Shown: in pieces, positions 7,100 to 63,639 of the stretch
Layout of the letters: each line of letters opens with the position of its first letter
How positions within the stretch are numbered: the first letter of the stretch is position 1
Assembly (NCBI GenBank): GCA_973895155.1
Contig: OZ316894.1
Location: 9,585,440 to 9,649,439 of the forward strand
Origin: Marsupella aquatica
Taxonomy: Eukaryota > Plantae > Marchantiophyta
DNA length: 64,000 nt
Direction of reading: 5' to 3'
Program-made: the position numbers and the translations under genes
The notes under the pieces: generated by a model
The model's input: only the letters and a program-made list of their open reading frames with translations
Told to the model about the DNA's origin: nothing
The model's database searches: none

Positions 7100-7750
7100 T
7101 TTTGCCTCCTTTATCATTGTTGCCCATGCCATTGTTACCCTTGCCCCTCTAGTTGCTATGCTGATGATATCCTGGCACAAAGGGTTGACCACCACAACAT
7201 CAGCCAAGGTATGTTAGTCATCATGGACCATAAAAGGATTGTCAGGTTCTTGTCCTGGTAATTGTTATGGTGGAGTATTAGGCAAATGGAGCACCTGTCA
7301 CCTCCTGTTGCAACTTGTACCAAATTCCCGGAGAGAACTAAAGCAGTAGCATCTCTCATTAATAATTATGGTCTCACCCCCTGTATGGCACCAAAGAAGA
7401 TGGACCCTTGTGGCATCACAAGGCTTCCGACATGTGCAAGAAGTAAGTAAGCTTACAAGAAGTGGATCATGATGTAAGGTCCCCATACAAAGATGTATGG
7501 GTGTTGAGAACTCATCTAAAGACCTCCTTAGATGAGGAATGGCAGAATTGGCCTGGAGCCACCATTTCCACACTTCCCTCCTGAAGAAAGAATTTGAGCT
7601 TGGACACTAAGATGAGAACAAAGAACTAGGACCTAAAAGAGAGGCAAAAGTCTCTTAAATGGAGAGATCAAAAGGTGAAAATGATCAAAAGAAAGGTGCG
7701 AAGTGTCCACCCACTTACAGGTCATATTTGATTGGGGACTATAAACATTT
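7100..7750 (-). pseudogene. Decayed fragment of the CRE-like non-LTR retrotransposon family (zinc-knuckle/REL region)
   Basis: ORF 7298-7573 (WLQANSAIPHLR...SCTCRKPCDATRVHLLWCHTGGETI) matches the element at 21040-21240 (WLQANPVIPHLR...SCTCGKPCDATGVHLLWYTLGGETI). Boundaries are approximate. Confidence 0.75.
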
Positions 7751-39727: not shown

Positions 39728-40118
39728 ACTGGCAGCTTGGCCCACAGGACCAATATTCTGGCACGCTTCCTGGCGTCCGCTTCTCCTGTGTGCAGCGTGC
39801 TTGCTCACTCTACAGACCCAATAATCTGAAATGCTTCCAGACCTCCTCTGCTCCTGCGTGCATCTTTAGCATGGACTTTGAGCTGCGTGGGGTGTAGCTT
39901 TAGCGTGAGTGGGATGCAGCTGTGAGCTTGTAGTGAGCTGAGCCGCTCGGCGCGATCTCCACAACCCACTCGGATCAGACAAGTCTCCGACAGAATAGGT
40001 CGAGTGCGCGGGGGACCCGCAAACTTTGCTTTCAGCCCGCAGTTCTCGCCGTTGGCGCAGCTTGGAGTCAACCAATCTGTCTTGTCTTCTTCTTCCTGAG
40101 ACAAGCTCCGCAAGAGCC

Positions 40119-41507
40119 ATGGCGGAAGAACAGCGAAACGGAGGGGCGAGTCAAGGGCGTCACAACCATGGAGGAGTCCCACCAGTAAGCCTTTACGGGA
40201 AACGTAAGAAAGCACAAGGTATGAAGGTTACAATTTTGCATTCTCTTCCATTGAATGCTGTAACCACACTGCAGCTCAGAAAATCTACTGTTCTCGCCGT
40301 CTTGATCTGTCTATACGTCCTCCTCGTGCATGCTGCTCCCGCTCCCACGGGCGCTACAAGCACAAATGCCATAGTCTCAATTGACTCCCGACTTACATAC
40401 CTTCTACCCGCGGGATTCGTTGGCAACCTCACCCTGAATTTCATCGACACAGTGACCAGCGATGGCACCATCGCGGGATCGTTCTCAGCCGCGAAGAAGG
40501 CACCGTTCATCTCCTACGATCCCGAGTTTCTGCAGATAATCGGCGAAACTCCAAACTCGCCACAGCTCATCGCGCATAGAGACGAGCTCTTCGCCGACGA
40601 GGCAGGCGTTTGGGTCCCGGAAAAGAACCAGGTCTGGTTCACGAGTTTCACGGTGAATGACGCCAGCAATCTCTCGATCCTCGACCTCGGCACGTCGAAG
40701 ATCTTCAGGCCGAACACCAGCATTCCAGTCGTCACTCCAAATGGCGGATACTACTTCGAGGGCAAGGTTTACTTCACCGGCCAAGGCACCACCCCGGTGG
40801 AGCCCTGCATTTACGCCATCGACATCCACACCTATGAGACGACGATTGTCATCAATTCCTACTTCGGTCTCCGCTTCGGGGGTCCCAACGACGTGACCTG
40901 GGCCAGGAGGAAGAGTGGAGATGGTAAGAAGAGCTTCATGTTCTTCACTGATGAACCGGAATCGTATATCTACGCTGGTGGTCTGCCCCCGGTGCTCCCC
41001 AATGCCGTCTGGAGGTATGATCCGCAGGACGAGAGCATTGTCCCTGTCATAAGCCGAGCAGACATCCTCGCCCCGAACGGTGTGGCTGTGAATGCGGATA
41101 GCTCGAAGCTGTATGTGACCGATACGCCATTTGCTAACGTGTATTTGCCCGCCGACACGCCGAGCTCGGGATCCACGGCCATCTTCTCCTTCGACCTCGA
41201 CGACGATGGCTTCCCGGTGAACAAGCGAATGCTCGGGATATCGAGAAGTGGCATTCCAGATGGCATCAAGGTCGACGACGCAGGAAGGATATGGACTGGG
41301 GAGGGCGAAGGGATTGTGGTGCGGAATTCGAGAGGCAAGGTCCTCGGTGTCTTCAACTCCGAGTTCTTTCTGGAGAATTATCAGAATGAACCTGCCATAG
41401 CGAATTTCGCACTTGTCGATGACACGCTCGTTGTGCTGGCTATGCAGAGGGTCTGGACATTGAAGCTGGCCCAGAGGGTCGTTTCTCCTGATAGGTATCG
41501 AATGTGA
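40119..41507 (+). CDS. SMP-30/gluconolactonase/LRE-family beta-propeller hydrolase, probably secreted
   Basis: Motifs EAGVWVP, PNGG, GGPNDV, FFTD, PNGVAVNADSSKLYVTDT, IPDGIKVDDAGRIW and a hydrophobic N-terminal segment. Possible in-frame 90-bp intron 40184-40273; alternative ATG at 40221. Confidence 0.88.
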   Translation: MAEEQRNGGASQGRHNHGGVPPVSLYGKRKKAQGMKVTILHSLPLNAVTTLQLRKSTVLAVLICLYVLLVHAAPAPTGATSTNAIVSIDSRLTYLLPAGFVGNLTLNFIDTVTSDGTIAGSFSAAKKAPFISYDPEFLQIIGETPNSPQLIAHRDELFADEAGVWVPEKNQVWFTSFTVNDASNLSILDLGTSKIFRPNTSIPVVTPNGGYYFEGKVYFTGQGTTPVEPCIYAIDIHTYETTIVINSYFGLRFGGPNDVTWARRKSGDGKKSFMFFTDEPESYIYAGGLPPVLPNAVWRYDPQDESIVPVISRADILAPNGVAVNADSSKLYVTDTPFANVYLPADTPSSGSTAIFSFDLDDDGFPVNKRMLGISRSGIPDGIKVDDAGRIWTGEGEGIVVRNSRGKVLGVFNSEFFLENYQNEPAIANFALVDDTLVVLAMQRVWTLKLAQRVVSPDRYRM

Positions 41508-41544: not shown

Positions 41545-41920
41545 TTTGGAAGATGCATCAATGAATCGTGTTCGGGAGATTTATGTCCAACTTTTGTGGC
41601 AGCAGTCATGATGGACATTTGACCACTCATCCCTCGGTTCCCAACAGATACTTCAATCTGGTGGGTTTGCAAGATGAAATGCATCAATGAATTGTGTTCA
41701 GGAGATTAATGTCCAACTTTTATGGCAGCAGTCATGATGGACAGTTGACCTCCCAATCCCTCATTTCCAATCAGATACTTCAAATTGGTGTGTTTGCAAG
41801 TTAAGATGCATCAATGAATCGTGTTCGGAAGATTAATGTCCAACTTTTATGGCAGCAGCCGTTGATCTCCCAATCCCTCGTTTCCAATCAGATACTTCAA
41901 TTTGGTTGGTTTGCAAGTTC
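41545..41920. repeat. Three-copy ~130-bp tandem repeat downstream of the lactonase
   Basis: ATGCATCAATGAAT.GTGTTC...ATGTCCAACTTTT.TGGCAGCAG...CAGATACTTCAA...TTTGCAAG x3. Confidence 0.85.
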
Positions 41921-42719
41921 TGGGGCTCACAGAGGGAGGGACACAGGGTGCATTCTTCTGGATTTATTGGCACAGGAGGGACTGTCAAAAAGAGGCAGCA
42001 CCTCCTACTGTGGCTCAACTGATAAGACACATCAAAATTTGAGCCTTGACTAGTTGCCAAGAAAGGAAATCATGTGCCAAATCACCGCTTGTAAGGTGAA
42101 TAATGTCTACCAACAAGCGGCATCCATGCAATTTTCGGTATCGGATTGTTGCCATGTAAGGCTATCATTTGCCAAATCAACACTTGAAAGGCCAATCAAA
42201 TGGCGTCCATGCAAACTCCTGTATCTATGTGTTGCCTGTCAAGGAACTCGATCAGACACCAAGTGGCCCCTCGTCTGGTGCATGATGTCTATTATCAGGT
42301 TGGCGTCAGTCCTCTGTATCCACAGTGCCCACGTACAGATTGAGTTTCATCGAAGGGATGATTGGAATTTTCAGCTATACCGCATACTGGAATGATGAAC
42401 TCTTCTGTCTAAAGTGAACGTCCAGACATCCCTCTTTACATAAACAATGTACAGTGAGATCTGGGTGCGAGGAGCAGAAAATTTGAAACCGCTGATCTCG
42501 TCCATACAGGATACCAAATGGTAGAATGCTCGGATTCCACCGGATGTATGATGACCACAGGCTGGCGTACAGTATCCACGGATCCCACGGCAGTAAGAGC
42601 CGTGGACTACCCTGAATGCCCGGTTTAATCTGACGGGCACCTTGACGCCTTGTCGGGCACGTCAAATCGTCAAATGACGGCCCGAAAACACGCAATTTGA
42701 CGTATATTCCTGAAGATTC

Positions 42720-43320
42720 TCCCGAACGAACCCCGACTTCCCCGGACCTTTCGCGAACACCTCCCGAGCACCCCGGACCTGAACCCGAACTCCCCCTGAC
42801 CCGAACCCGGACTCCCGGGCCCTTCCCGGACCCTCCCCGGACCCTCCCGGGCCTTTCCCGAAACCTCGCCGGACCCTCCCCCGAACACTCCCCGGACTCT
42901 CGGGCCTTTCCCGGACCCTCCCCGGACCCCCACCCGAACCCTCCCCGGACCCCCACCCGAACCCTGCCCGGACCCTTCCGGGGCCGGCCGGGGTAAAGGT
43001 GGCCCGGGGGACGGGATTCGGGGAACCGGGGACGGGGGGCATTCGGGGAAGAGGATTCGGGGAACCGGGGAAGGGGGGGCGGGAAAGGGGGGCCGGGATT
43101 CGGGGATTTGGGGAACGGGGTTCGGGGAACGGGGTTTGGGGAACGAGGTAGGGGGTTCGGGGAACGGGGTTTGGGGAACGAGGTAGGGGGTTCGGGGAAG
43201 GGGGTTCGGGTAGGGGGTTCGGGGATGCGGGGAACGGGGTTCGGGGAACGGGGTGCGGGGTTCGGGGAACGGGGTGCGGGGTTCGGGGACGGGGCTCGGG
43301 AATTGGTGGCCGGGGAAGAG
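42720..43320. repeat. Left subterminal GC-rich repeat field
   Basis: C-rich CCCG(A/G)ACC units (42720-42975) switch to G-rich GGGGTTCGGGGAAC units (42980-43320). Confidence 0.85.
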
Positions 43321-43529
43321 TTAGAGGCGGGATTAGGGTTAGGGGCGCGAGATTAGGGTTAAGGGAGGCGCAATTAGGGTTAGGATCAAAGATTAAGAGT
43401 TTTAAGAGAGGATAAGAAGTAGATGATTTAGTATAAGTAGGAATAACTAATTCATTTCACTAATCCAAAGTCTCATTGTGTTTCTCTCTCTTGTGGTTTA
43501 GCATTAGGGAGAGATCGGAGGGATACATT

Positions 43530-43885
43530 GGAACTCTTGTACGCGCATGCTTTGAGCTCGGCTCGGTCTGCGATAATTCGTACGAGAAGTTCCTTATATC
43601 GCCTTAACAACTTTGCATCATTGTTTTGTTTGAAAGTGAACTACTTGCGAGTAAAGAGATACCCATGTGCATATGCTTAGAGCTTTGGCTCGGTCTATGA
43701 CATTTCATATGGGTATCACGATTTCTCATACATATGTTCACTTCAAAGATAAACTATTGTGAAGTTATAGATATTACATAACATAGGTTGAAGTAGGGAT
43801 GTTGACAAATATAAGAATTTGGGAAACTTTCCTGCGCATGCTTTGAGCTTAGGCCCAGTCTGCGATAATTCAGGAAAGTAACCCA
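43530..43885 (+). promoter_or_regulatory. Three tandem conserved stem-loops upstream of the transposase ATG
   Basis: Core CGCATGCTTTGAGC-loop-GCTCGGTCTGCGATA inside different closing stems at 43530-43593, 43658-43717 and 43820-43885, with compensatory substitutions. Confidence 0.75.
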
Positions 43886-43960
43886 TTGTACTATATTTGT
43901 TATATTCACAAAATCAAAAGAATCAACCCTTTTATTTTTTTACCATTGAGAGTCGTAACA

Positions 43961-46863
43961 ATGTCCGATGAAGAGGATTCGCATGAAACTGGATATCATT
44001 CCACTACTCCCAGGCCTGGTCCAACTCGTGTGCAAGAACACCCTTCAAAACAATCTCCAGTGTGGAGATATTTTGAACGATGTGATGCGCCTTCAACATG
44101 TCATGATGTCAATCGTATCTATCGAAGATGCAAGTATTGTTTAACATACGTTACTCATCATGCAACACGAGCAAAGGCGCATTTGATGGGAAACATCCAA
44201 AAAGGGGATGCGCCCCCTTGCATGCAACTCTATGGTGTCGTCGATTTGGATGCCATCAACATTATGTACAATGTGATAAAGGTTCCACCGACCTTAAACT
44301 ACAAACGACGAGATGGAAGTCATATCTTGCGGGATGTGAGAGGTCGTAGGCCAAGCGTTGGAAGTTCATATTCGCAAGCATCCACACGAGGGTCAAACTA
44401 TGTTGACATGGATGATACACATGTAAGGGAAGGAGATAGGCCAGTAAATCTTCCTAACCCAATTATGGATGCCTATCAAATTCCAAATAGAACAAATTTG
44501 GATAAGCTTTGGGCGAAAGCTTTCTACACCAATGGTATTCCATTCAATGTTTCAAATAATCCTTTTTTTCGAGAAGCAGTCATAGAGACTTCAAAAGGGA
44601 TTGTCAATGGTTATTCTCTACCTACGATGCGAAGTTTGCGATTGAAATTATTGGAAGACAGTAAGGAGGATCTCACAAAGGACATGACGCAAACTTTAAA
44701 GGAGGCAAAACCTTATGGGTATTCTCTTTCTTCAGATGGATGGGAAAACGTCCGAAGAGAACCTTTGATGAATGTCATGTTGTTGACTTCTAAAGGTGAC
44801 TTCTTCTTGGATAGTTGGAATGCTGCGCAAGCTGACAAGAAAGATGGGAAATATCTTGGCGACATGTGGTTGAAATACATTGAGGATATTGGTGCAGATC
44901 ATATTATTCAAATTGTAACTGATGGAGCACCCGCAAATCGCGTAGCAGGTTGTGAGGTAGTCATGAAAAAGTATCCTCATGTCACTTGGAGCTGGTGTGC
45001 TGCCCACGTGTTTAATTTGCTGCTAGAGGATATGTGTGGTCACAAGCGTGTAGTGGTAGATGATGTTGGACAGAATCCATTCCAAAAGATTTTTAAACGG
45101 TTGAGGTGGATAGTAAAAGCAGTTTCATCATCGCAAAAGCTTTCTGCAATATTTGCAAGAAAATCTCCTGACAAAAAACTGTTGAATCCAAATGCAACTA
45201 GATTTGCGACCAATTTCCTAATGGCACAAAGAGCGTTGGAGCTAAGAGGAGCTTTACAACAGATGGTCATTGATGATAATTGGCAGTCTTATCGTGATAG
45301 ACTTCCATTGCGACCAAAATCAGCTGGACACATGACGAGGGGAAAGGCAGACGAACTTAAAATGTGGATACAGCAAGATACATTTTGGGTTGAAGTGAAG
45401 GATACAGTTAAATTCTTTACTCTGTTGGTCAAGATGTTGCGAGAATTTGATGGTGATTCTCCGCAATCAGGTTGGTTGTATTGGAGTTTGAAAAGAGGGA
45501 TTGATGTTTTGAAAGCAAGCATGGAGGATTGTCCATTGGTAACAGAGGTATTGAAACCGAAGATACTAAAAGTGTATTTGGATCGAAAAAAATCTCTTAC
45601 CACTGATTTCATGCTAGCGGCAGCATATCTCAATCCCCAAATGTTTTTTGATGAGGACATAGATGTCGCTGGAGATCCAGAACTCTACAGGGTTTCAGTG
45701 AATACATTGCTAGATATTCAGAACAACAGGTGAAGGAGGGGATCAACCATGATCGCGACGTCAGAGAACTTATTTCTGCCATCCACAGTCAAGCCATTGA
45801 CGCCCAAAAAAAAAATCCCAACACATCAATAGCGATGGGAGCCGCCCAATCAAGTATAGGTAATGTCAGTCCAGCAGAGTGGTGGCATGCGTATGGTGCA
45901 GATTATAAACATTTGAGAATCCTGGCGCGAAGAATCTTACACCAAAAAGTGTGCGCATCAGCTTGCGAGCGAAACTGGAGTTCGTATGGATTTATACATT
46001 CCAAAAGTCGCAATCGATTGACAAATGATCGAGCAAAAGATTTGGTGTTTGTATTTACAAACATGAGGGTAGAGAAAGGGCTCACAAATGTTCGAAACCC
46101 GCATACGTTTATATATGAACGTTATGACCAAAGAAGAAGAACAAATGATGGACCTAGACCTATCTCCATGGAGTTGTGCAGCAATGAAGAGTACGATGCA
46201 ACACGTGCGGCTCTTGGTGAAGAAGATGTCGAAGATTATGATACAATTGATGATGCTGATGAATTGCTACACGGATTTTCACTGGATAAGGATAGTGAGT
46301 TCTTGACTCGTATTCCACCAGATACAGACATCACTGCTGCAGAGGAATGGGAGAATGAAATGGATTTGGAGATGTATCCTACAATTGATGAATCGCAAAT
46401 CCAAGACGAGGAAGATGCATCACTGGACAGAAACTTTGTGATGCCTTCCCAACCAAGGTCACCTTGGTCGAACTTTGCGAATGATGTTGACACAAGCAGA
46501 CCATATTTCAACGAGCAACGCACAGGCACAGCAGGGCATCCGACGAATGGAAGGACATCAACCTTTTTTCATGGATACAATCATGAAGGTCAAACTTCAA
46601 ACGACCCACATGCAAACTGGCAACACCATGCAGGTCCACCCTTGAATGCGTATGCAGGGCCAAGTGTCATGAATCCATATACGTCGAACAGGCCTATTGG
46701 CCTTGGTGGGTTTCGAGGAATATCATCATTTCAAGAAACATCGCACAATGTTCAGTCACACAATCGTGATCCACTCAGTTGGGGCGACAAACAAGACGAG
46801 TGGAATGCGCTTTTGTGCAAAAATCTTAACAACAATGCACGAAATTTCTCTTCACAGCCTTGA
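43961..46863 (+). CDS. hAT transposase (BED zinc finger, DUF659-type RNase H core, hAT dimerisation domain), one frameshift
   Basis: BED finger (SPVWRYF..CKYC..KAHL), catalytic D (SDGW), D (VTDGA), CAAH, TRFAT, then WW..YG and CERNWS (E). An apparent 1-bp deletion near 45683-45690 splits it into ORFs 43886-45733 and 45730-46863. Confidence 0.92.
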
Positions 46864-47104
46864 AGCATCTTTTCATTAGGATAATATCAAGTGTTGCTAC
46901 TCTTATATTGTCGTATCTGACATAGACAAAATTATAAACAATTATATTTTTTGTAACATGATTGTATTGTCTTGCAGTGTGTTTATTATTGTACAATGAT
47001 TGAATAATTTATTTGTATTTGCATTTGAGAATGCCATAGAGACACACCAACGCAACATGTTTTCCAAATCTCCAACACTGACTATTTCAAAGTACCTTGT
47101 TGTT

Positions 47105-48430
47105 GGCCATAGCAGCCGTAGTCCATACTAGCCCCCTCCATTAATTGGTTAGTTCATTTCACTATGCGAAGATTTAGTCCAGCAATAGAGCACCGTCATA
47201 TTCAATAATAATGAGGTCGAGAGGACCTCATTATTGGACCTGAGAATGTCATTGCTTGAATAAACCTTCTCGTAATAAAATAAACTTAGTTGAACTTGAA
47301 GTTGTAATGAGGGCCCATTTTTGGGGTGGGTGAATGTCGTTGACCGTAGCAGCTGCACTACTTGAAGTTGGGCAGAGTTTATATGACTATGAGAGAAGTT
47401 GTGAAATGAACACATCGCCTACATAATCAGTAACCTTCTCATAATCATATAAACCCCGTTCAACTTGAAGTTGTAATGAGGGCCCATTGGTGGCCAAGGA
47501 GAGCAATGTCATGATGATGATCAGACACGGTCACGGGGATTCCGCAAGATCGGTCACCAAATTGATATGCAGACGCAAAATACAATCACCAATTTCAAGT
47601 CAAAGTTCACCCGTTTATATCCTCTCCTGTCCGAATTCCAATTCGAGCTTGGACACCCTCTCGTCAGCAGGTCTCCACCCTTTCAGTTGCTCCTCACGCG
47701 AACCTCTGGATTCCTCAAACACTATGAATGATGCATTGAAATAAAATAGGTTCGAGGATTCTAGAGACTGCTATCTTGGTTTGCGTGAAGAGCAACTGCA
47801 ATGGTGGAGACCAGCTGACGAGAGGATGTCCAAGCTCGAATTGGAATTCAGAAAGGAGAGGATATAAACATGCAATTGTGCGAATTAATGTCATAGGCCG
47901 TAGTAGCCGTACTCCAGTAATTGGTCAGTTCATTTCATTATCAGAAGATTTATTCAAGCAACGGAGCACGAACATATTCAATAATAACAAAGTCAGGAGG
48001 ACCTGAAATATTGACCTGAGAGTGCCATTGCTTGAATAAACCTTCTCATAATGAAAAAAACTCTGTTCAACTTCAAGTTCTAATCAGGGCCCATTTTTGG
48101 GGTAGGCAAATGTAGAGGCGTTGGCCTCGGTTTGCATGCGCATGAATGTCATTGGTCGTAGCAGCTACGCTACTTGAAGTTGAACAGAGTTTATTTGAGT
48201 ACGAGAGAAGTTGTGAAACCAACGGATCGATGACATACTCAGTAATTTTTTGCTCGAAGGACCTGAAAATTTGACCTGAGAGTGCATTTGCTTTCAGAAC
48301 TTCTCTCGTACTCAAATAAACTCCGTTCAACTTCAAGTTGTAATGAGGGCCCATTTTTGCGGTGGGCAAAGGAGTAGGCGTTGGCCTCGGTTCGCATGTG
48401 CATGAATGTCATTGGCCGTAGCAGCAATAG
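47105..48430. ncRNA. Cluster of five pre-miRNA-like foldbacks (putative small-RNA precursor array)
   Basis: Arm pairs 47151-47186/47251-47286, 47360-47400/47432-47471, 47613-47704/47778-47869, 47927-47961/48028-48062 and 48172-48222/48288-48338. Four units share a scaffold ending ...AACTT(G/C)AAGTT.TAAT.AGGGCCCATT. Expression is not demonstrated. Confidence 0.65.
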
Positions 48431-48930
48431 CGGAAAAAATTATGAAAGACAGGAAAAGTGAGTGGACTTAGGTATACATCCTTCTACAAAATCATTCTCA
48501 ACTTGGGCGGCTAAAACCATTGCGATGTTGACTTTGTTGAACTCATTGTGCTACACGATCTCCTTTTGGAAATGATTTCAGAGAAGGATCAGTACCTGAG
48601 TCCACTGTGCTACCGTCTCTCATCACGTCTATTTTCCTCATACTTGTCCAAAAATATGATTGTGAGCCCGACAATATGCTTCCAAAACCTATGGCTGATT
48701 GGAGGATGGAATATTCTTACGAAAATACACATTCTCCAAAAGGCGACGCCATGCCCCCAATGAAAAATATATGTACTCATCGAGATATGCAATGTAATGT
48801 CACTCCAAAATCTCTTTACCAATTACAAGTTGAAAATAATTGTCAAAGAGGATATGCCGCTTCTATTTTAACAAAATGTCTCTAATAGTAACTACATGAA
48901 AATAACATCAAAATGTAGAGACTATTGGTT

Positions 48931-50928
48931 TTAGTTCCTTTTGTTGTTATTGTCAACAGCTTCTGTTTTCACCTCTGCCTGTTGTTGACGTCGTCGATGG
49001 CGCTGAATGGATCGTTGCAAATTTTGCTCATCTATTGATGGCTGGTTGGCTGCCGCATATTGTTTCCACTCATCGAGTCGACCACTGAATAACAACCTGT
49101 CAAATTCCCCATCTGACAAATTATATTCATTGATTGTGAAATGTTCAATGGGAGTTTCATCTATTTGCATCGCCGGTATAGTATCTTCAGTCATATCTTC
49201 AGTGTTTTGTTGAGTCTCCATTGATGGCATTTGCTTCAACAATCCTCGTTGCTCATACTCGCGTTCATGAAATGGTGTGCGACACCAACATTTTCGGCTT
49301 TTCTTCAACCATTTAGACAAGCAAGCATGATGCCATATATGACCGCAGGTTCCCAACATGGAAACAGATTCAGGGCCCCAAGGATATAGGCACCAAGTAC
49401 ACTTGTCATCCTTTTCACGAACAAATGCTGCCATAGTTTCATCATTTTTCCACTTATCAAAAAACCTATCAATACCTTCCGCGTCAACCTCCACATCTGG
49501 AAAAAGGTTGCTGTGCCCTGTAGGATCTATGATTTGCATGTTAACAAAATTTGGCGGCGATAATTCACCTTGCCCTTTGTTTGACCTCATCCCCAAAGCA
49601 CCATTGTTAAATTCTTGCACCTCTTCGTGAAGATTTGATATGATGATTGCTTGCATTGCAAGTTCACTTTTAAGATCATTAATGATCTTGTCCTTCTCCT
49701 CAAGTCGTGCCAGTTCATTGCATTGACGCTCTTTTTCAGCAAGTTGTTTTGTCAGCTTATTGATTTCTTCCATCTTGTCAAACAATTGACACTTGTACAA
49801 CATCACTTCCGAATTGGTCGTCGGCTCGTTCTGCTTCTTCTCAAGTGATCTCATCTTTATATCAGCTTGTTGCAATTGTGACTTGAACTTTTCGATGCTG
49901 CCACATTCACATAGCTCCACTACATACTTCGTGCGGAGATTTGTCTCAATCACCTCTGCAACATCTGCCCCCAAGCTCTTGCATATGTTGTGCAGGTTGA
50001 ACTTATCCTTGTTAGCATCAGTAACATTGTTGTTCTTTGCATGTGGAGTTCTACTCCCAACACCTACAAGGATTGGTTTTTTGGTGTGCGTTGACTCCAC
50101 ATTGGTTGGTGGTGCTGCACGGTCAGGCATGGAGACTCGAGGAAGTACAGCCGCTTTCCCCTTCTCATGCGCATATCCCTCCCCAGTGTCATCTAGCTTT
50201 CTTTTGGATCCCTTGTTGGAAGTCTCCATTGAAGGGTCCTTTGCAATAGTTGTATTCCTATTCGTTGCAATCGCAACCACTGATGGATGCACCTGATGAG
50301 TCAGCTTGCCAGCACTGTTTTCCCAACGGTAATCCACCTTCCACTTGAGAATGAATTCAGCAATCAGACATCGGATAAAAGGAGGGTAAACGGAACTCAT
50401 TTTCGTTTGGGCTTTGTGTGGAGCAAACTCTCGATATCGTTGCTGCCAATGTGATTTAACACCTGCATGTGTTACTTTGGACATGGTGAATTTTTCTTGC
50501 GCCCATGATCTTGTTGCCCAAAGATCCGGATCGTGAAAAACTTGTTGTGCTAATGGCCAAAAGTCTTTCTTTGGCATCAACATCTCCAATTCCTTTGCAT
50601 TCATGGCCCATTCGTCATGGGGAGGATTTACATTGGGCGTTAATATACTCCATTCATCCTTCATACCCTCATCTTCCCATCTTCTTGTGTTTGGCGTCGG
50701 TGTTCCATCAACCTTGGGTTTAGCCTCATAGTGAATGCCAATGGTTGTAAGATTATCCAACACATTATTACGAAGAGCTTCATCGTCACAATAGGATCCT
50801 TGACCATCTTGCATGGTAAGATGTTGTGTTGTGAACTCTTTGTCTTCATCATCAGAAGACAATTCCCATCGTCCCATGTTTGCGATGTGTACAAAAGGTC
50901 TGCGATATTTGACAATGTACAAACACAT
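48931..50928 (-). CDS. Transposon cargo: coiled-coil plus RING-H2 protein (putative E3 ubiquitin ligase)
   Basis: Uninterrupted 665-aa ORF (second ATG at 50877), heptad-rich middle region, and CTWC-x14-CGHIWHHAC-x10-CWC ligand pattern. Confidence 0.82.
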   Translation of the reverse strand: MCLYIVKYRRPFVHIANMGRWELSSDDEDKEFTTQHLTMQDGQGSYCDDEALRNNVLDNLTTIGIHYEAKPKVDGTPTPNTRRWEDEGMKDEWSILTPNVNPPHDEWAMNAKELEMLMPKKDFWPLAQQVFHDPDLWATRSWAQEKFTMSKVTHAGVKSHWQQRYREFAPHKAQTKMSSVYPPFIRCLIAEFILKWKVDYRWENSAGKLTHQVHPSVVAIATNRNTTIAKDPSMETSNKGSKRKLDDTGEGYAHEKGKAAVLPRVSMPDRAAPPTNVESTHTKKPILVGVGSRTPHAKNNNVTDANKDKFNLHNICKSLGADVAEVIETNLRTKYVVELCECGSIEKFKSQLQQADIKMRSLEKKQNEPTTNSEVMLYKCQLFDKMEEINKLTKQLAEKERQCNELARLEEKDKIINDLKSELAMQAIIISNLHEEVQEFNNGALGMRSNKGQGELSPPNFVNMQIIDPTGHSNLFPDVEVDAEGIDRFFDKWKNDETMAAFVREKDDKCTWCLYPWGPESVSMLGTCGHIWHHACLSKWLKKSRKCWCRTPFHEREYEQRGLLKQMPSMETQQNTEDMTEDTIPAMQIDETPIEHFTINEYNLSDGEFDRLLFSGRLDEWKQYAAANQPSIDEQNLQRSIQRHRRRQQQAEVKTEAVDNNNKRN

Positions 50929-51064
50929 TTAGCACAATTTTGGGCATTCACGACAAAGTTTGATAGAATATTATCAACAAAATGCAGAACATTGTAATTG
51001 ACATACAATGAATAAACATATAATCGTTAAGGTGACCTTTACAAAATTGTGTAAACCCTAATCT

Positions 51065-52720
51065 CTAATCTCTAAGATATGGACTGTTGTGCAAATGCAA
51101 TGTGCAATCTGGAAACGTTCGAACTATCTTCAAACTCCAAAAAGCACAATCCATTCTTTTCTTGGCATCCGTGGCCATCATTTCACGGATTATGATATCC
51201 AATTTGGGGCCATGCACTTGTGCACTCCAACCCCTCCCCAAAAACCGTGAACCCTTAGACATTCCATCCCAATTCTCTGTCAACAATGTCTCAAAAATAT
51301 TCCCCAAAGCATATATATCGGTACTTTCACTAAACTCGACAGGGGTAGGTTGAACAAGCTCCGGAGCCAACTGTGGAAATTGTTTTTGGTATGTTGCTGC
51401 TTTTTCTGTTGCTGTGGGCCACATCCGATTAGCTGGTAATTTGCACTGTGATTTATGCTTAGACAAGCCAAAATCACATAAACCAACATACACCTTAATA
51501 GCCACATCGTGCTCGTGATCGAAATGAAGAAGGATGTTTCCAAAGTGAAGATCACAATGAAATCGATCATGCTCATGCAAGTATTGCAGTGTCTCCAGCA
51601 AAGCCAAGGCGATTCCCAACCGGTTCTCCAACAAGAGTTTCTTCTCCGAAATAAACTTGAAATCAAGGTCCGTCGTGATCTGTGCCTTCCCCTTGCTCTT
51701 TGACGATATGCCGCACTTATCAATAAAGCTACCCAAGTCACCTCCATTATAGTGATCGTAAATAAGTTTTGGCGGATCCTCAATAGTCAACGCAAGAGCT
51801 CCAACGATTCCCTTATGATTCAGTCCTCCCATAAGCACTTCTTGTAATGCGTCAGTTCGTCTCTTATGCTTGTCTCCATCCTTGAACCGCTTTGCGACTA
51901 AGGTCACGTTGACGGGAATGAGAGGACAATGTAATATACGACAAGTGTATACCTCTCCTTGGATTCCTTTCCCAATGCGACGTGTGTTGTGCACCTGCTC
52001 AGGTTTAAGAAAATGGATACTCCTAACCTCTGGAACTACACGCGATGGACGTGTTCCTTTTCGAGCACTTTTGATGCTGACATCCCCAAAGTGCACAATC
52101 TCGTTAGCATATTTGACATTGCTATCAGATTTTGCCATTGCCAACTCCTTACTCCACTTCACTAGCAATTCTCTCTTGTGTGTGTACATCCCGGGGTTTC
52201 CAAGCAATGTAGTGTCACCCTCTTCCACTTTGGCTGCCAAATTATCCCAAACATGCTTCTCCAAGTTGAGTGCCAAATTTTCCAGAAATCCTCCCGGTTT
52301 CTCAGTTTCATCTTCAAATGACTTCATTTGCTCTCGTGTGAAATTGTCTTCCTTTTGTACACTTTCCCGCATACAACGGGTTATCTCACCAAGAAAGTTT
52401 TTGTATCCTTTCTCTCCGTGTCTTGTGAACTCCCTCTCGAACCCGTCCACCCCATACTGTTTCGGTTGAGTGTAGCGATAAAGTATCTCTTTCCATATCG
52501 ACACTACCACATTGTGTCGAACTTGTTTTGCCTCTTCGTTTGCCCCCTTCCGTTTTCGTTTCCCGGCCACTTTGCTAGAATTCCTAGCATGTTCGAGAGT
52601 GTTTCGAGCGTTCTTCAATGCATCCAGAGCAACAAGATTCGGCTCATATCCCTCATTCACATGTTTTGTGATCATCTCCAACACTTGCCTATACTCTAAA
52701 CTAAAATTTTCGATGACCAT
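51065..52720 (-). CDS. Transposon cargo: protein kinase (TKL-like, non-RD) with N-terminal helical extension
   Basis: Uninterrupted 551-aa ORF with GKGIQG loop, VAK lysine, alphaC Glu, HCDLHFGNIL, DFG, APE and DIYALG. Basic KRKRK patch near the N-terminus. Confidence 0.9.
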   Translation of the reverse strand: MVIENFSLEYRQVLEMITKHVNEGYEPNLVALDALKNARNTLEHARNSSKVAGKRKRKGANEEAKQVRHNVVVSIWKEILYRYTQPKQYGVDGFEREFTRHGEKGYKNFLGEITRCMRESVQKEDNFTREQMKSFEDETEKPGGFLENLALNLEKHVWDNLAAKVEEGDTTLLGNPGMYTHKRELLVKWSKELAMAKSDSNVKYANEIVHFGDVSIKSARKGTRPSRVVPEVRSIHFLKPEQVHNTRRIGKGIQGEVYTCRILHCPLIPVNVTLVAKRFKDGDKHKRRTDALQEVLMGGLNHKGIVGALALTIEDPPKLIYDHYNGGDLGSFIDKCGISSKSKGKAQITTDLDFKFISEKKLLLENRLGIALALLETLQYLHEHDRFHCDLHFGNILLHFDHEHDVAIKVYVGLCDFGLSKHKSQCKLPANRMWPTATEKAATYQKQFPQLAPELVQPTPVEFSESTDIYALGNIFETLLTENWDGMSKGSRFLGRGWSAQVHGPKLDIIIREMMATDAKKRMDCAFWSLKIVRTFPDCTLHLHNSPYLRD

Positions 52721-52933
52721 GTTTTCCCTTCACAAAAGGAATATGTGAGGGAGGAACAAGATCTTACCGGGATTTAAATAAAATCCTTCCAATAAGGATT
52801 CAACGACCAACCTGAAAATTACAAGTCGTATTGTTATTATCTTTTCCCGGTTTATTTCTCCCATGCATTATGTATTTTTATTGCACACATGATTTTAATT
52901 ACCTTTCTATATACAACAATAAAAGAGAAAGAC

Positions 52934-53283
52934 AACACTTGTGAAATATCGCAGACCGAGTGGACGCTCAAAGCATGCGCACAAAAGTGTTCTTTTCTTT
53001 CAAAGTTGTTATATTCCTGCTTCGACATATGTGATTTGGTGTCTATAACTTAACACTCATTTGTATTTCAAGTAAAAACATTCTCGGCGAATCGTGGTAT
53101 CCATGCAAAGTATCGCAGACCGAGCCGAAACTCTAAGCATGCGTACATGGATTCCTCTATCTCCGCAAATGTTTTACTTAATGAACAAAGGAGACTAAAT
53201 TGTTAAGGTGATATTAAGAAATTCTTGTACGGAGTATCGCAAACCGAACCGAGGCTCAAAGCGTGCGCGTACAAGTGTTTCTT
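52934..53283 (-). promoter_or_regulatory. Three tandem conserved stem-loops upstream of the kinase ATG
   Basis: Reverse-complement copies of the same core at 52934-52991, 53096-53155 and 53216-53283, each with its own closing stem. Confidence 0.75.
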
Positions 53284-53411
53284 TATATCCCTCCATTTGG
53301 CTCTAAGGTTAAGGTTTAAAACACAAAAAAAACTTAAAAAATCACAAAACAAAACACAAACAAATAAAAACAAACCAAAAATCAAAAATAAAAACCAAAA
53401 CCAAACACTTA

Positions 53412-54115
53412 CCTCCTCCTCCTCCTCTTCTCTTCCTCCTCCTCCTCCTCTCCTCCTCCTCCTCCTCTCCTCTCCTCTCCTCCTCCTCTTCCTCCTCTCC
53501 TCCTCTCCTCCTTTCTGCAAAACCAAAAATGAGGAGGGAGAGGAGGGATCTCCTCCTTTTATCCTCTCCCGAGCCCCCGACCCTTTCCCGGCCGGCCCCA
53601 TCCTCCAACCCTAAATCGCGAAACCCTAATTCTTCGAGCCTCAATCCCGAACCCCGAACTTCCAAACCCCGAACCGGACCCCGAACCCCGAACCGGACCC
53701 CGAACCCCGATCCCCACCCGGACCCACCCCGGCCTCCCGGACCCGAACCCCACCCGGACCCCACCCCGAACCCCCACCGAGCGCCTCCGCCCCGGGCCCG
53801 GACCCCACCCGAACCCCCCGTACCTCCCGAACCCGAACCCCTCGGACCCGGACCCGAACCCCACCCGGAACCCCACCCGAACCCCCCGCACCTCCTCCTC
53901 CCGGACCCGAGCCGCACCCGGACCCCACCCCGAACCCCCACCGAGCGGACCCGAACCCCACCCGGACCCCACCCCGAGCCCCCACCGAGCGCCTCCGCCC
54001 CGGACCCGGACCCGATTAGTCACCCGGACCCCCACCCGAACCTCCTCCCGAACCTCCTCCCGAACCCGAACCCCGAACCGGACGTTTCCTTTCCCGGACT
54101 GCTTCCGAACCCGGG
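53412..54115. repeat. Right subterminal repeats: (CCT)n tract and C-rich CCCG(A/G)ACCCC units
   Basis: CCT/CT microsatellite at 53412-53510, then dense CCCGAACCCC / CCCGGACCCC repeats at 53570-54115. Confidence 0.85.
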
Positions 54116-54826
54116 TGCCGGGTTGTCAATTTGCCGCTCTCAAACGCCCAGTTTGACGGGCAAGGTCAAACCGGGCCTGAATGCGTGATCTGCACCTCAT
54201 AAAGGAGAAGGATCATATAAAACATCCATTGTTTGTAAATAGAAGCCTCTCAAGAAATAACAGGCTTGTGTGGGCGAAAAGGAGAGCAAGTTATAGCAGA
54301 GAGACAAGGGATAGATGTATGCTGTGGAAATCCTATTGATTCCAATGAGCATCGGAGAAATTGTTCTCTGTATGCACGGAGTAGAAGTTTTGAGCCACAG
54401 CACTGAGGAACACCAAACTGTGAGGCACATGCTGTCGAATCTGAATAAACGCATTTAACAAAGTGCAGAATATACTGTAGCTTTGTAACGGCAAAGGAAG
54501 GGTTCAGAAGGAAAGTCATACAAATGTGAGTACTAAAGCCTTAAATTTTGGCAAAAGGAGAGCAATGGAGAGCTTTCAATGACGTGTCAAACAGTGTGCG
54601 ATCTACGCTTTCTGCAAATATATTCAATTGTTAAAAACTCCACTCATGCACTTTAGTGTTGGAAGCTTGGTTACACTATCAGGTGAAATACCTCACATGC
54701 ATCAGTCAGCTAGTGAGTCTACAGTAGTTTTAATGATTGTAGTACCGTAGAATAGTTGGAGACCATATCATGGAATTTCTTCTAATTTATGGATACAAGT
54801 TTGCTGCGAAAGTGGAGCACAAGATT

Positions 54827-56233: not shown

Positions 56234-57660
56234 TCACTTGCCGGCTCGAAAAGCTGCGACAATCCTGCTTGTGATGTCTTTTCCAAATAGCCTTGGAAGG
56301 TTAGCAGACAGATCAACCTCCACACCTTTCTCCTTAATTTCCGTGTCTCGCTTCGCCATTTCATCCGTATTCTGCACTGGGAGACCCCGATAACGGAAAC
56401 TATCAAGCCAGACTTGGAGCGCTTGGGTGACTCCTGGATGTACCACGTTTGTAATTTGTTCATCCAAGAGACCTCCTGGTACCTCAGTGTTGTTACTGAC
56501 TCTGAAAACCGCAGCGGTGGGGGAAACCACACTTCTGACAAAGAGAACAGGGGATACGTAAGGCTTGGCGTCTGGGGCATTTTCAAAAATCTGCCTCACC
56601 TTGTCCAATTCTGTGTCTTCATAGAAGCGTTTCAGATAAGCTGAATCCAATACCAGGTCTTTCCGAGGAAGATGGTCCAGGACCACTACAAGAACAGGAC
56701 CGCTAAGGATGAATTCGAAGAGGAAATGTGGGGAGTCTGACTCTGTGCCGAGCATGATCACCACAGTTCCAATGTCTAGGGTCCCAAAAGGAAGAGTCGC
56801 GTGAAGCCAGGATTCAAGCGTAAAATCTACCTGTCACAACATAGCAAGGGCAGGTGTAGTTTCAGTATGCTGTCGTCGTTCAAGGGGACGGCAAGCTGAC
56901 GGCAGAATTCAGGCATTAGATTTTCCAGTCTGGGTATAGATTTTCCAGTCTGGGTAGCACATGTGTGTACTATCATGTTTATAAATGATAAGAAGAGTAG
57001 GAAGACTTGAGATATTCCCAAAACTGCTAACGAGTTGCGACAGTTCGAACGAATCAACAGATGCCTTAAGGTTTGAATTCCATCCTTCTACCTAATCTGA
57101 AATCGAGCTCTGAATTCGACTACAACGAGCATGCTGATGCTGAGAGGGAGCTCATTCAATGGAGTCTAGGCGATACAATTCTCACTCCTCACGAAAAGCG
57201 GACGAAGATGAAAGGAAGACTATTTTACCTTGGAATCCTTTCCAGCTCGCAGACTGACGGAGCCTTCAGCGTTCCCTTCCGCACTTTTAAAGTACCTCAC
57301 GTCACTGGGTGTTTGGCTGGCGTGGAGGTAGGGTCCAAGATCCTTGTCCAGAGTCTCTGCAATCTCTGTCAGCAATTTCTGAGCTGATTCCGGAAAGAAT
57401 GGGAACAGAGCTCCGTCCGTACTCGACGTGGCAGCAGCCAGCACTGATTGTCGTCGCCCTTCATCATTCCATAGTCTTGGGCTCGGACCAATCGGTTGCC
57501 TCAGACCTGAACCTCTTCTTCTTGTAGGTGAAGAGAATTGTGCGACCAAACTACAAGAAGGTTGGCATGCGCCATGCTCGGCGCCATGAGGAATACGAGC
57601 AACCGGGCGGACATCGAACAGGGCTGACAATAGACATGCAGGCAGGATGGATAACGACAT
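56234..57660 (-). CDS. RCCR: Red chlorophyll catabolite reductase
   Basis: Transit-peptide-like N-terminus, then TPSDVRYFKS..G.AEGSVSLRAG, VDFTLESWLH, PHFLFEF, LDHLPRKDLVL..YLKRFYEDT and PYVSPVLFVRSVVSPTA. Two exons: 57660-57229 and 56830-56234. Confidence 0.9.
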
Positions 57661-57937
57661 GCCGCTCAGCAACCCAGGACTTGATCTGCACCTCCCTGCA
57701 GCTGTGCAGGATATGCCAATTCCACAGAGCAGCAGATTCAACCCAACGAGAACCGGGGACGAAATACGGGAAGCTTGATGATGACAAAAGGTAGTAAGCA
57801 CGTTTTGTTTCCTTGCTCACGCAACTTCCTTGTTCATGCAAGTACCACTGTAACAGAAAATTCCTGAGCAGAGTTTACTTTATCCATGTATTCGGTTTGC
57901 TGCGAACCCTAAGTCAGTCACGATCTTCGGTAATGCA

Positions 57938-59995: not shown

Positions 59996-62785
59996 TTACA
60001 TGTAAAGACCCTCTGGTACACCTTCCTTCTTCTTATACATCACTTTCTCCTTAGCCTTCTTGAAGTCGGGTTGAGTCACCTGGATAGCCACACACAAAAC
60101 GTTTAGCTTGTACAAGTTTAACGCAGCCTCCAGAGAACTAGATCACTTTAGTATACGTAGGTCTAGCACTCCACAATGCACGACCTGAGTATGAACAGTG
60201 ACTAACTACGGGTGATCATCCCCGAAGGACATAGGATGCTCAAAGAGTCACACACCTTCATCCGGCGTTCTCTTAGAGCCAAAAGCCCAGCTTCAGTGCA
60301 GATAGCTTTGATGTCTGCTCCTGAGAACTCATCCTTTGTCATCACAAACTCTTCTAAATTTACATCATCGGATAGAGTCATTCGAGAAGTGTGTATCTGC
60401 ATAGCCAAGGAAATCATGGAAAGCTTTAGACAACTGAAATTTTCTGTCCCTCATTCCACTACAGAAATCAGGCGGTCAGTAGAGTGCGTCTGCCGAATGA
60501 TGACGGATAATGGATCTCAACATGAATTTCAAGAGTCGGACAATTATGAATAGATCTGAAAAATAAAAATGAGCCTATAAGGGCAATCAGGAACATTCTA
60601 TAGCATGATTGTAATGACAAACTTTAATGTGTCTATTTCCAGAAAGCATCTCGTCCAGTGTTCATTAGTTGGCATTGAAGAGGGGAGTAACAAACCTGGA
60701 AAATACGGCGTCTTGTCTTGATATCAGGAAGAGGGAATTCTATCTTTCGATCAATTCTTCCAGGTCTTAAAAGAGCAGGGTCTAAACTCTCGATTCGGTT
60801 AGTAGCTAGAATGACCTTCACGTCACCCCGTGCATCAAATCCATCGAGCTGATTTAGCAACTCCAACATAGTTCTCTGGATTTCCCTTTCACCTCCAGAA
60901 TGGGCATCATACCTATACAAAATAAAATCCCCAAAGGGAATTACAGCAAGCTCAGCTTCAGCAAAGTTTATATGATGAACTCCACCCACACTATATTTTT
61001 CCTACGTGAAACAAACATTACACTTGCCCTCAAGGAAATTAAAGGCATTTGCTTCTTTAAAGCAAACTCTAAACGTCTTTTGAAAGCCAACAACGGACAC
61101 TAGAACGAGGACTATCGTAGATACTCAAGTACTCTGGCCAAGGGCCACTCTATCCGACGGGTAACAAAAGGCATTGCTTCTTTCCTGATTGCATACTGTG
61201 CATCAGAAACTCGCGGCCAGAGACCTTATGCTCTCGACAGATGGAACTAAAGTAGATGCTAGTATAAAAATGCAATATAAATAAAAAACGCATCAAGAAC
61301 ACAAACCATTCTTAAACCCTGGCTAATGTATCCAACAACCTTATAAGCAGCTCGTTTCTAAATGAGTCCGTGATAATGCAGAGATATACCTCTTAGTACC
61401 GATGGCATCAATTTCGTCAATAAAGACAATTGAAGGTGACAGTTCATCAGCAACCCGGAATAACTCCCTAACGAGCTTAGGGCCATCTCCCAAATACTTC
61501 TGGATGAGCTCACTTCCAACAACACGGAGGAAAGTAGCTGATGTGGAGTTCGCAACAGCCTGAAAAACGTATGAAGATTTAGACTAAAGACGACAAACTC
61601 CTCGTAGAGACGAGAACACGTTGATACACTGCATATAACAAACCAGACATATGCCCAATTGCTTTAGTACATACCTTGGCGAGAAGTGTTTTCCCAGTTC
61701 CCGGCTCCCCGTAGAGAATCACTCCCTTCGGAGGCTTAATACCAATATCCTCATAAAGTTCCGGGTGTGTCAGTGGAAGCTCTACTGCCTCCTTTATTTC
61801 TTGAATTTGTGGATCTAACCCTCCAATGTCTGCGTAGGACTCAAGCGGTGCCTTTTCCACTTTCATGACTGAAACCATAGGATCGACTTCATCTTGTAGC
61901 AGACCAACCACAGAGAGGACCTGTCACAACGACATGCCAGGATTCTCATTTCTGACCACAAATCTCAATTCCATGCTGCCATGAAAAGCAGACCCTGGAT
62001 GCTTCTTAACATACGACAAATTATACAAAAACCCTAATCTCAACAAACCAAGCGCTTGAACGAGCATGCTACAGTGAACAAAAGACTTCAAAACTACTCC
62101 TGCAAACTCTTCGCTACTCCAACAGAATTTGGAGTAATTTAGACCCACACTAAATATGCAGCTTTGCGACATCTGGGCACAAACCCTTGTTAGGCAACTG
62201 TGAATTTTAGCATTCCAGTATAATTTGGGCATCGTAGACGAAAAGCAAATGAAAAACGGGGAAATGACTGGCCGGTAACAACGTTCTAAACCATAAAATT
62301 CACCATACCTTGTTATGCATGAGGATAGCACAGCCAGGCTCCAACTGATCCTTGTCCACGAACGAGAGAATGTTTACGTAATACTCTGGACCCACGGATG
62401 ATGACACAATGGCATGGTTTTCGTCAATTATCTCCTCAAGATTCCCAACGCTCATGGGAGAGCCGCGAAGATCGTCGACCTTGGAGCGATCCTCCTCATT
62501 TTTGTCCTCCTGCGGCTTCAACCGTTCCTGATTGGTGACAAATTCCTCCTCCATCAACAGATAATCCTTCACCCGCTCCAGCTTCAGAAGCCTGAGCTTA
62601 CACTTCGAAACAGGAGTCACCACAGGCAACCGAGCAGCTGCCTCTGGACCTTTCTGCTTACGCTGCTTCCTCCCCACACGCGTCGGTGGTGCCGCCGGCT
62701 CATACTTCTTCTCCTTCTTCTCCTCCGCCTTCTTGTCACCTGGAGGCCCCGACCTCGGTAACCCTCCTGACTGCCCCTGCCCCAT
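59996..62785 (-). CDS. RPT2: 26S proteasome regulatory AAA-ATPase subunit 4
   Basis: MGQGQSGG N-terminus, Walker [31 protein letters not shown] and C-terminal [12 protein letters not shown]. Six exons approx 62785-62309, 61920-61674, 61559-61390, 60911-60695, 60397-60256, 60079-59996. Confidence 0.97.
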
Positions 62786-63639
62786 CTCTGTTACCTCAAC
62801 GATCCGCCTTTTTGCTTCACAAACTCCCGAGCGAAGTTAGGACTCCCCCTAACAAAATTGTTGTCCGTCCGTCCGCAGGCAGAAATCGCATGGGACAAGG
62901 GGAAAAACCGGGCAAGGAGAAAAACCCTAATGTTTTCAGTTGCCTATTAAACCATAATAACGCGAGTCCAGATTGCCCCAGAGACGGTCAGTCAAGTGAC
63001 CTGCAGGAGCCATCATTGCCGAAATTTTAGCACGCAAAATTGAAGATCACTGGATGCTCAAAAAGCACGTGCACAGACAGTGTTCATAAAGCCAATATTT
63101 CCGTGCTGAGCCTTGGAAAAATGCCTGACCCAAACGTAGTGGCGAGCGAAAACGAGACAGCGCGTTAGTAGAGCTCAGATTTCTTTGCCCGGGAGCTTGA
63201 GACAATGCTTCGACCTAATTGCAAACGACTTAAATGAACGAGACAAGACTGTTCATAGTTTAGAGCAAAAGATTGCTGCACAGAGCTTGGACAAATTGCT
63301 TCAACCTAACCCACTGTGGTTGCGAACGAATTCACGAATCGAGCATGCTTCGACCTAATTGCGACCGGCTTGAGTGAGCGAGACAGAGCATATATTTCTT
63401 CAAACCAAAAATTGCTGCGCAAAGCTCTGAAGAAGCGCTTCAATCTCACCTCCTGTGATTGCGAACGAATTGGCGAATTGGCGAATTGGCGAATCGAACG
63501 AGCGCTCTGCTCGCAAAGAAGGAGCGCGAGAACGAGAGAGAGCACGACGAGAAACGCAACACTACTGCACCAAAACAACAATAGCAACGAGAGAAAACGC
63601 TACTGCACTATCAAATGCGTTCGCTCCACTTCTTCGCCT

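Follow-up and report, generated by a model that had tools for sequence, protein, structure and literature searches.

To our knowledge, canonical hAT transposons encode a transposase only. Accessory genes in DNA transposons are nevertheless already known. The element-encoded VANC protein of the Arabidopsis VANDAL MULEs is described as an anti-silencing factor (PMC5735166), and TnpA of Spm is presented as a sequence-specific DNA-binding regulator (bioRxiv 10.64898/2026.08.24.746577). A rice CACTA element carries miR820, a validated microRNA that targets OsDRM2 (PMC3459959). The plant transposon counter-defences that we found in print are DNA-binding proteins (VANC and TnpA) and one microRNA (miR820). 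For the fungal TET/JBP DNA transposons, such as IS3EU with its alpha-kinase, counter-silencing is proposed, which is untested there (Kojima 2025, PMC12730594).

Here we analysed a 64,000-nucleotide stretch of the genome of the liverwort Marsupella aquatica (the window), in which a non-RD protein kinase gene lies inside a multicopy hAT element together with a RING-H2 ORF and a cluster of microRNA-like hairpins (Table 1). We consider it highly probable that the kinase is a functional gene borne by the element. Like plant hATs of the Ac/Tam3 type, the element is flanked by an 8-bp target-site duplication, ends in short terminal inverted repeats, is repetitive in its subterminal regions and encodes a transposase with DUF659 and hAT dimerisation domains. 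It departs from them in its length of 11.6 kb and in its additional cargo, namely two more intact ORFs and the hairpins, which would be transcribed from a second, paralogous end module in the direction of the transposase.

The locus shares with IS3EU the intact enzyme accessory genes, the opposite orientations of transposase and kinase with another cargo gene between them, and an apparent movement of cargo between transposon lineages. In contrast to IS3EU, the host here is a plant, the transposon is a hAT, the kinase is a conventional ePK-fold non-RD kinase instead of an alpha-kinase, and the accompanying cargo is a RING ORF and hairpins instead of TET. Like VANC and TnpA, the kinase is an element-encoded accessory protein in an element with short repeated motifs in its non-coding parts; unlike these sequence-specific DNA-binding regulators, it is an enzyme with no detected similarity to them, the superfamily is a different one, and a Pfam scan of the cargo proteins found no VANC-like family. 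The hairpins recall miR820 in being microRNA-type structures inside a DNA transposon, and differ in being six in number, predicted, and known from sequence alone.

A literature search, with Repbase entries and subscription papers outside its scope, found no description of the element or of the kinase family, and no hAT with a kinase, a RING protein and hairpins together. The word kinase has no occurrence in the main-text passages of an Arabidopsis transposon-product atlas (PMC13547354), a MULE survey (PMC6446971) and the TnpA preprint (10.64898/2026.08.24.746577).

Table 1 Positions of the element, its genes and its repeats in the window.
Feature	Position	Strand	Remarks
hAT DNA transposon, 11,557 bp, multicopy	42619-54175		target-site duplication and terminal inverted repeats
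Target-site duplication, left copy, 8 bp	42611-42618	+	identical to 54176-54183
Target-site duplication, right copy, 8 bp	54176-54183	+	identical to 42611-42618
Left terminal inverted repeat	42619-42626	+	8 bp perfect; 11/13 of the first 13 match
Right terminal inverted repeat	54168-54175	-	pairs with the left end
GC-rich subterminal short repeats, left	42700-43320		families D1-D4
GC-rich subterminal short repeats, right	53620-54110 (approximate limits)		families D3, D4, D6
Promoter-like module upstream of transposase	43517-43872	+	three copies of a ~40-nt motif; paralogous to the kinase module
hAT transposase, two frames in the present copy	43961-46863	+	break near 45689; DUF659 E 2e-30; Dimer_Tnp_hAT E 5.9e-11
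Six long pre-microRNA-like hairpins, H1-H6	47130-48615		z -3.4 to -21, 30 shuffles each
RING-H2 ORF, 665 aa	48931-50928	-	uncharacterised N-terminal part, likely coiled coil; RING-H2 at residues 507-547
Non-RD protein kinase gene (main finding)	51065-52720	-	one open frame, 551 aa
HCDLHFGN catalytic loop of the kinase	51536-51559	-	residues 388-395
All-helical N-terminal domain of the kinase	52109-52720	-	residues 1-204, includes basic patch 54-58; AlphaFold2 mean pLDDT 78
Promoter-like module upstream of kinase	52942-53294	-	paralogous to 43517-43872

Results

The kinase gene lies in a multicopy hAT element

The terminal inverted repeats of the element start unlike the usual hAT consensus. 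Its transposase, of the DDE type with a dimerisation domain at the C-terminal side, carries a CxxH motif. A W..F/C/C/H/H pattern may correspond to an N-terminal BED zinc finger, although Pfam zf-BED gave no match. Beyond the dimerisation domain, the protein continues in a long tail that is acidic and rich in Ser/Thr; the first transposase frame has no sequence match in the PDB. The transposase is read inward on the plus strand and the kinase and RING ORF inward on the minus strand, such that transposase and kinase face each other with the RING-H2 ORF and the six hairpins between them.

Six of the seven listed read runs contain the stretch wholly or partly, and runs X1, X5, X6 and X7 were compared with positions 41800-53300. 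In X1, possibly the source sample, the contig of the unique left flank has a depth of 15.8 and ends 27 nt inside the element. Depths of 243, 213, 229 and 183 were found for four contigs of the element, which carry 1-4 substitutions over lengths of 820-1604 nt; the value of 183 belongs to the contig over the 5' part of the kinase. These per-contig depths suggest about 12-15 recent, near-identical (>99%) copies of the element; the estimate uses each contig separately, as summed depth is not a copy number. Since the majority form in X1 (depth 211 of 291) has one extra base at the transposase break, most copies probably keep the transposase in one frame there. The same run also contains a more diverged subfamily at a depth of 16-19.

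A family about 90% identical is present in X7, where the kinase contig shows 47 differences in 452 nt without gaps and its depth of 147 is similar to that of the transposase 5' contig (153). X5 contains relatives at about 80-98% identity across transposase, RING ORF and kinase, and X6 gave a few low-depth near-identical pieces together with diverged transposase contigs, from which nothing was concluded. Neither an empty site nor a second flank of the element was seen in this comparison, and no contig outside the window was found to join kinase and transposase. As an aside, runs X2 and X7 bear the same species label; X2 has 0.80 of the element's words, and X7 almost none but the ~90% family at high depth, which may reflect subfamily turnover or a labelling difference. 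An earlier note on this DNA, made from the sequence alone, had taken the kinase to be part of a mobile element, and the target-site duplication, the terminal repeats and the read depths around the kinase bear this out.

A non-RD kinase predicted to be catalytically intact

The gene appears to be intronless, as judged from its single open frame and from full-length collinear homologs. The kinase domain comprises residues 244-475 (Pfam PK_Tyr_Ser-Thr, E 1.9e-16; Pkinase, E 1.3e-15), with the Gly loop at residues 249-257, the VAIK lysine at Lys277, the alphaC glutamate at Glu294, the DFG motif at residues 416-418 and the APE motif at 452-454. In the catalytic loop, Cys replaces the Arg of RD kinases and His the usual Lys, exactly as the earlier note had read it, and the remaining catalytic residues are present. 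The residues for catalytic competence (VAIK Lys, alphaC Glu, HxD Asp and Asn, DFG and APE) are complete in the query and kept across its family, and the product is predicted to be a catalytically intact protein kinase.

The best PDB profile matches, namely Roco4, ROR1, DDR, FLT3, KIT, CTR1 and BRAF, are weak (E about 1e-8 to 1e-5), and the kinase is, by its sequence, best described as a divergent member of the TKL/TK side. Roco4 of Dictyostelium, CTR1, BRAF, DDR and KIT resemble it in the fold of the N-lobe, but are RD kinases with other domains, matched at E about 1e-8 and, in the structural comparison, at 16-22% identity, and none has the N-terminal domain. The full-length AlphaFold model is poor (pLDDT 51), fold searches with it returned a generic TK/TKL likeness, and in the Atlas the features of the full protein matched generic kinases of many different taxa.

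The N-terminal extension had been called unrecognisable, and indeed its ~240 aa, with a KRKRK patch at residues 54-58 (nt 52547-52561), have no match in a Pfam scan. Structure prediction gave a helical domain (Table 1) without supplying a relative for it: Foldseek returned nothing at E 0.001 from the PDB or BFVD, the best VIA-align match (Z 5.2) was not usable, and Atlas gave none. A search with a profile of the domain recovered the core family (among them P0183, which clusters with P0031) and missed the outer clade members. The predicted domain is so far without a structural match, which does not in itself prove a new fold.

Non-RD kinases are enriched in immunity, and a link to innate-immune receptor kinases had been raised for this protein. 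The link gained no support, as Pfam detected no receptor-kinase ectodomain before the kinase domain, where the charged helical domain is found instead.

The kinase family is conserved and lies apart from RD kinases

Eight homologs at E 1e-132 or better span most or large parts of the kinase, and a wider search gave 17 homologs. The relatives are 46-83% identical and keep the whole architecture and the catalytic residues. Alignment A6 has 20 rows, counting the query and three pairs of near-duplicates. Of its rows that cover the catalytic loop, 18/18 read H-[C/A]-D-[L/M/F]-H-x-x-N, with Cys in 16 and Ala in 2. The Arg before the catalytic Asp is therefore missing throughout, and the non-RD status proposed earlier is confirmed. 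Given the eight homologs at this level and the invariant loop, the ORF is more than a chance open frame. Lys277 and Glu294 are each kept in 16/16 covering rows, the DFG Asp in 14/16 (Asn in the other 2) and the APE Glu in 12/14, and the basic patch is a Lys/Arg-rich stretch in 10/10.

Between the kinase and that of the metagenome locus L001, dN is 0.44 and dS is saturated (~4.5); for L002 the values are 0.32 and 2.6. By these comparisons, the kinase has diverged under purifying selection. The translated range of L002 carries two stops and is probably a broken copy. These stops, and the Asn in the DFG motif of 2/16 rows, indicate that some copies of the kinase are dead.

In a profile search against 1.84 billion proteins, 1117 matches reached E 0.001; at 1e-10 there were 64, and at 1e-30 there were 18. 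The best 150 of the 1117 include 144 new proteins, and the catalytic loop was found in 109, 83 of them non-RD and 26 RD. No close canonical kinase is among these best 150 matches, where RD kinases begin only at E about 1e-14. A FastTree phylogeny was built from 72 kinase domains, five of which were chosen manually and the others for sufficient length to either side of a single loop; with 263 columns, long branches and a midpoint root, it is weak in its deep part. The query falls in a 9-row family (0.998) within a clade of 44 rows (0.917), every one of them non-RD, and all RD kinases of the tree lie outside this clade.

The Calypogeia fragments sit in the core family, and the three named Calypogeia relatives are partial proteins; Calypogeia fissa provides the nearest named relatives of both the kinase and the RING ORF, which by itself would point to a leafy liverwort as the probable host. 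Looking up 20 outer clusters gave three further names, of which Riccia fluitans and Adiantum nelumboides lie inside the clade and Gigaspora margarita (P0087) outside. No non-kinase Pfam domain was found in the 25 outer members scanned, and a pattern scan of viral contigs and prokaryote genomes found no relatives. The kinase thus seems to belong to a non-RD radiation that is so far from seed-free plants, as its named members (Calypogeia, Riccia and Adiantum) suggest.

The earlier note had considered a possible non-plant origin and had called DLHxGN loops typical of expanded fungal TKL-like kinases. A fungal origin did not find support, as the named clade members come from two liverworts, one leafy and one thalloid, and from a fern, with the Gigaspora match outside. 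With this single named fungal match and a deep tree that is weak, the sequences neither support nor exclude such an origin. A literature search for the literal string DLHxGN gave nothing. Separately, we observed a larger non-RD radiation (proteins P0053-P0171) with H[N/C]DL[H/S]xxN loops and a [W/Y][W/N]NGG hinge.

Paralogous modules precede the transposase and the kinase

The modules upstream of the transposase and of the kinase, each ~360 nt, are 72% identical over 359 nt (E 7e-47), and each contains three copies of one motif. As a pair, they amount to inverted repeats, long and imperfect, that are internal to the two ends of the element. We infer from this likeness that they may serve as a shared promoter and that kinase and transposase would be co-expressed.

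A related module (L001:1-330; 69% over 149 nt, E 5e-11) precedes the 47%-identical kinase of L001, and a repeat spacing of about 123-124/164 nt is common to the modules of the element and that of L001. There, the genes next to the kinase are first a DUF6729 ORF (E 2e-11) and then an unrecognised 657-aa ORF (L001:2527-5521 for the two together), and within the 3.6 kb available there is neither a RING gene nor a hAT transposase. Comparison of the 657-aa ORF with the hAT transposase showed no similarity, and the PDB gave no match for it; with its acidic and His motifs it looks transposase-like by eye. The L001 contig is too short for element ends, and L001 may represent a transposon of another type with a kinase of this family as cargo. 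As read from these sequences, kinase and module do occur with other neighbours, and the cargo set around the kinase is therefore not fixed.

The RING-H2 ORF and the hairpin cluster

The RING ORF, adjacent to the kinase gene on the same strand, is predicted to encode a ubiquitin ligase. Its zf-RING_2 match (E 6.9e-6) is just under the curated cut-off. Homologs point to Met18 as its start; two were found, at 50-51% identity, one of them (50%) from Calypogeia fissa, and an intact RING is absent from both as annotated.

The hairpin cluster sits between the 3' ends of the transposase and the RING ORF. H1+H2 and H4+H5 form a ~780-810-bp tandem duplication. On the better strand, H3, H4 and H5 reach MFEI values of -1.09 to -1.42 with z of -7 to -21, and by predicted folding they are stable single-stem hairpins, as plant MIRNA precursors would be; the values for H1, H2 and H6 are less marked (MFEI -0.80 to -0.84). 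In an overlapping fold scan of 1276 windows, MFEI was below -0.85 in 3/37 windows inside the hairpin gap versus 3/1231 outside, and the two lowest values were both inside. A non-overlapping scan found no window below -0.85, probably because its windows cut the hairpins. Since five of the six fold better on the minus strand, there is a weak hint that the hairpins follow the RING gene. Compensatory pairs are few (2/36 for H5 versus H2 and 0/32 for H4 versus H1), a weak signal, and Rfam gave sub-threshold miRNA matches and no hairpin match at the gathering score. Coverage of the hairpin region is poor in both X7 and X5, so the hairpins appear to be less conserved than the genes.

Two roles for the hairpins were considered and set aside. 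As self-targeting RNAs, they found no target within the element: the best site, in the transposase, scores 4.5, which by our own expectation is no better than chance, and the site was discounted. As host-gene fragments, their arms gave a Pfam match in 0/17 translated frames, and PDB searches returned nothing meaningful.

Other genes of the window

The host genes flanking the element are plant-like and interrupted. On the minus strand, a red chlorophyll catabolite reductase (56234-57816) and a 26S proteasome AAA ATPase (60633-62836) occur in pieces consistent with introns, and an LRR ORF lies at 13132-13761. An intronless SMP-30/gluconolactonase-like gene (39999-41507, plus strand) has a GC content of 0.55, a GC3 of 0.66 and a CpG o/e near 1, unlike its surroundings, and is a possible horizontal acquisition. 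The intronless ORF at 38648-39865 (minus strand) is Pfam-negative and has a hydrophobic signal-like stretch and Tyr/Gly-rich internal repeats; its product looks like a secreted cell-wall protein. Positions 6965-7672 and 19673-21687 carry a reverse-transcriptase fragment (RVT_1, E 1.4e-4) and partial copies in inverted orientation, at a distance of about 13-14 kb, and read as remnants of a decayed retroelement.

Discussion

Together, our results suggest that the element carries a toolkit of its own, comprising kinase, RING protein and hairpins, that likely helps it to evade host silencing. The kinase has stayed intact through saturating synonymous change, inside a recently amplifying element and behind the transposase's module, and the simplest reading of this is that it serves the element. 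We give about an even chance to the fuller reading, in which the kinase is a conserved accessory gene, likely kept for the benefit of the element, that probably acts by weakening host silencing in the nucleus, which would allow the element to transpose.

We then propose a model for how such a kinase could act. The two terminal modules would act as promoters and turn on kinase and transposase together, in convergent orientation. The basic patch would send the kinase to the nucleus. A non-RD kinase likely needs no phosphorylation of the activation loop, and the enzyme would probably be active without it. The helical N-terminal domain would choose a host chromatin or silencing protein, and phosphorylation would inactivate this protein or prime it for the neighbouring RING protein, while the hairpins might give rise to small RNAs against host transcripts. 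Counter-silencing is favoured here by analogy with VANC, miR820 and the TET/alpha-kinase cargo. The cargo itself points to no silencing protein as target, and every step past a conserved cargo gene is one that we infer.

The co-expression suggested by the shared upstream module would also suit a kinase without any host target, one that phosphorylates the transposase or the RING protein and thereby times or limits transposition, and the long acidic Ser/Thr-rich tail of the transposase speaks for it as well. We regard this as rather unlikely, since the L001 kinase has the same module with other neighbours, which fits an exchangeable host-directed accessory gene better. The arrangement at L001 also bears on a toxin-antidote or spore-killing module, in which a constitutively active kinase would harm cells or spores lacking the element and the RING protein or the hairpins would neutralise it in carriers. 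Kinase-domain spore killers are known on fungal mobile elements, the kinase here is non-RD and its gene is adjacent to the RING gene on one strand, and a haploid-dominant host would suit drive at the level of spores. However, no RING gene is next to the L001 kinase, neither the kinase mRNA nor the RING mRNA contains a match to the hairpins, and many dispersed copies would blunt drive, and we hold such a module to be improbable, more so than regulation of the element's own machinery.

A kinase that serves the host, acting in the cytoplasm of seed-free plants in defence or stress and merely being spread by the transposon, would accord with the wide non-RD radiation to which Calypogeia, Riccia and Adiantum contribute, and with the enrichment of non-RD kinases in immunity. 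Yet the kinase shares its upstream module with the transposase and follows the copy number of the element in two runs, Pfam finds no receptor or sensor family in it, and the three named Calypogeia relatives are partial, as decaying transposon copies would be. We put this at the same low probability as the toxin-antidote module. We rate it as far less probable still that an ordinary host kinase was recently captured, be it as a retrocopy or as a neutral passenger. The intronless gene would fit such a capture, and gene capture by DNA transposons is common, as described for Pack-MULEs (PMC6446971). But homologs at 46-83% identity keep the architecture and the catalytic residues with dN far below dS, there is no close canonical kinase among the best 150 of 1117 matches, and RD kinases lie outside the clade. 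This largely refutes the capture reading, and a recent retrocopy, the outcome that would have undone the earlier reading, is ruled against by the relatives and by the tree.

Returning to a conserved accessory gene kept for the element, it is tempting to speculate that the kinase belongs to an ancient, so far undescribed radiation of transposon-borne non-RD kinases in seed-free land plants, which moved among transposon lineages together with their promoter module. At this locus, kinase, ubiquitin ligase and microRNA polycistron would then form a three-part counter-defence cassette that acts against host silencing through protein as well as RNA, and in which anti-silencing by a signalling enzyme would be unlike VANC, TnpA or TET. 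We regard this wider picture as tentative and rather doubtful.

A recently amplified element with a kinase predicted to be catalytically intact, a RING protein and hairpins would add signalling and protein degradation to the arms race between transposons and their hosts, and the substrate of the kinase would mark a weak spot in bryophyte silencing. Transposon cargo may also account for some of the kinase expansions that are annotated as lineage-specific in liverworts and ferns.
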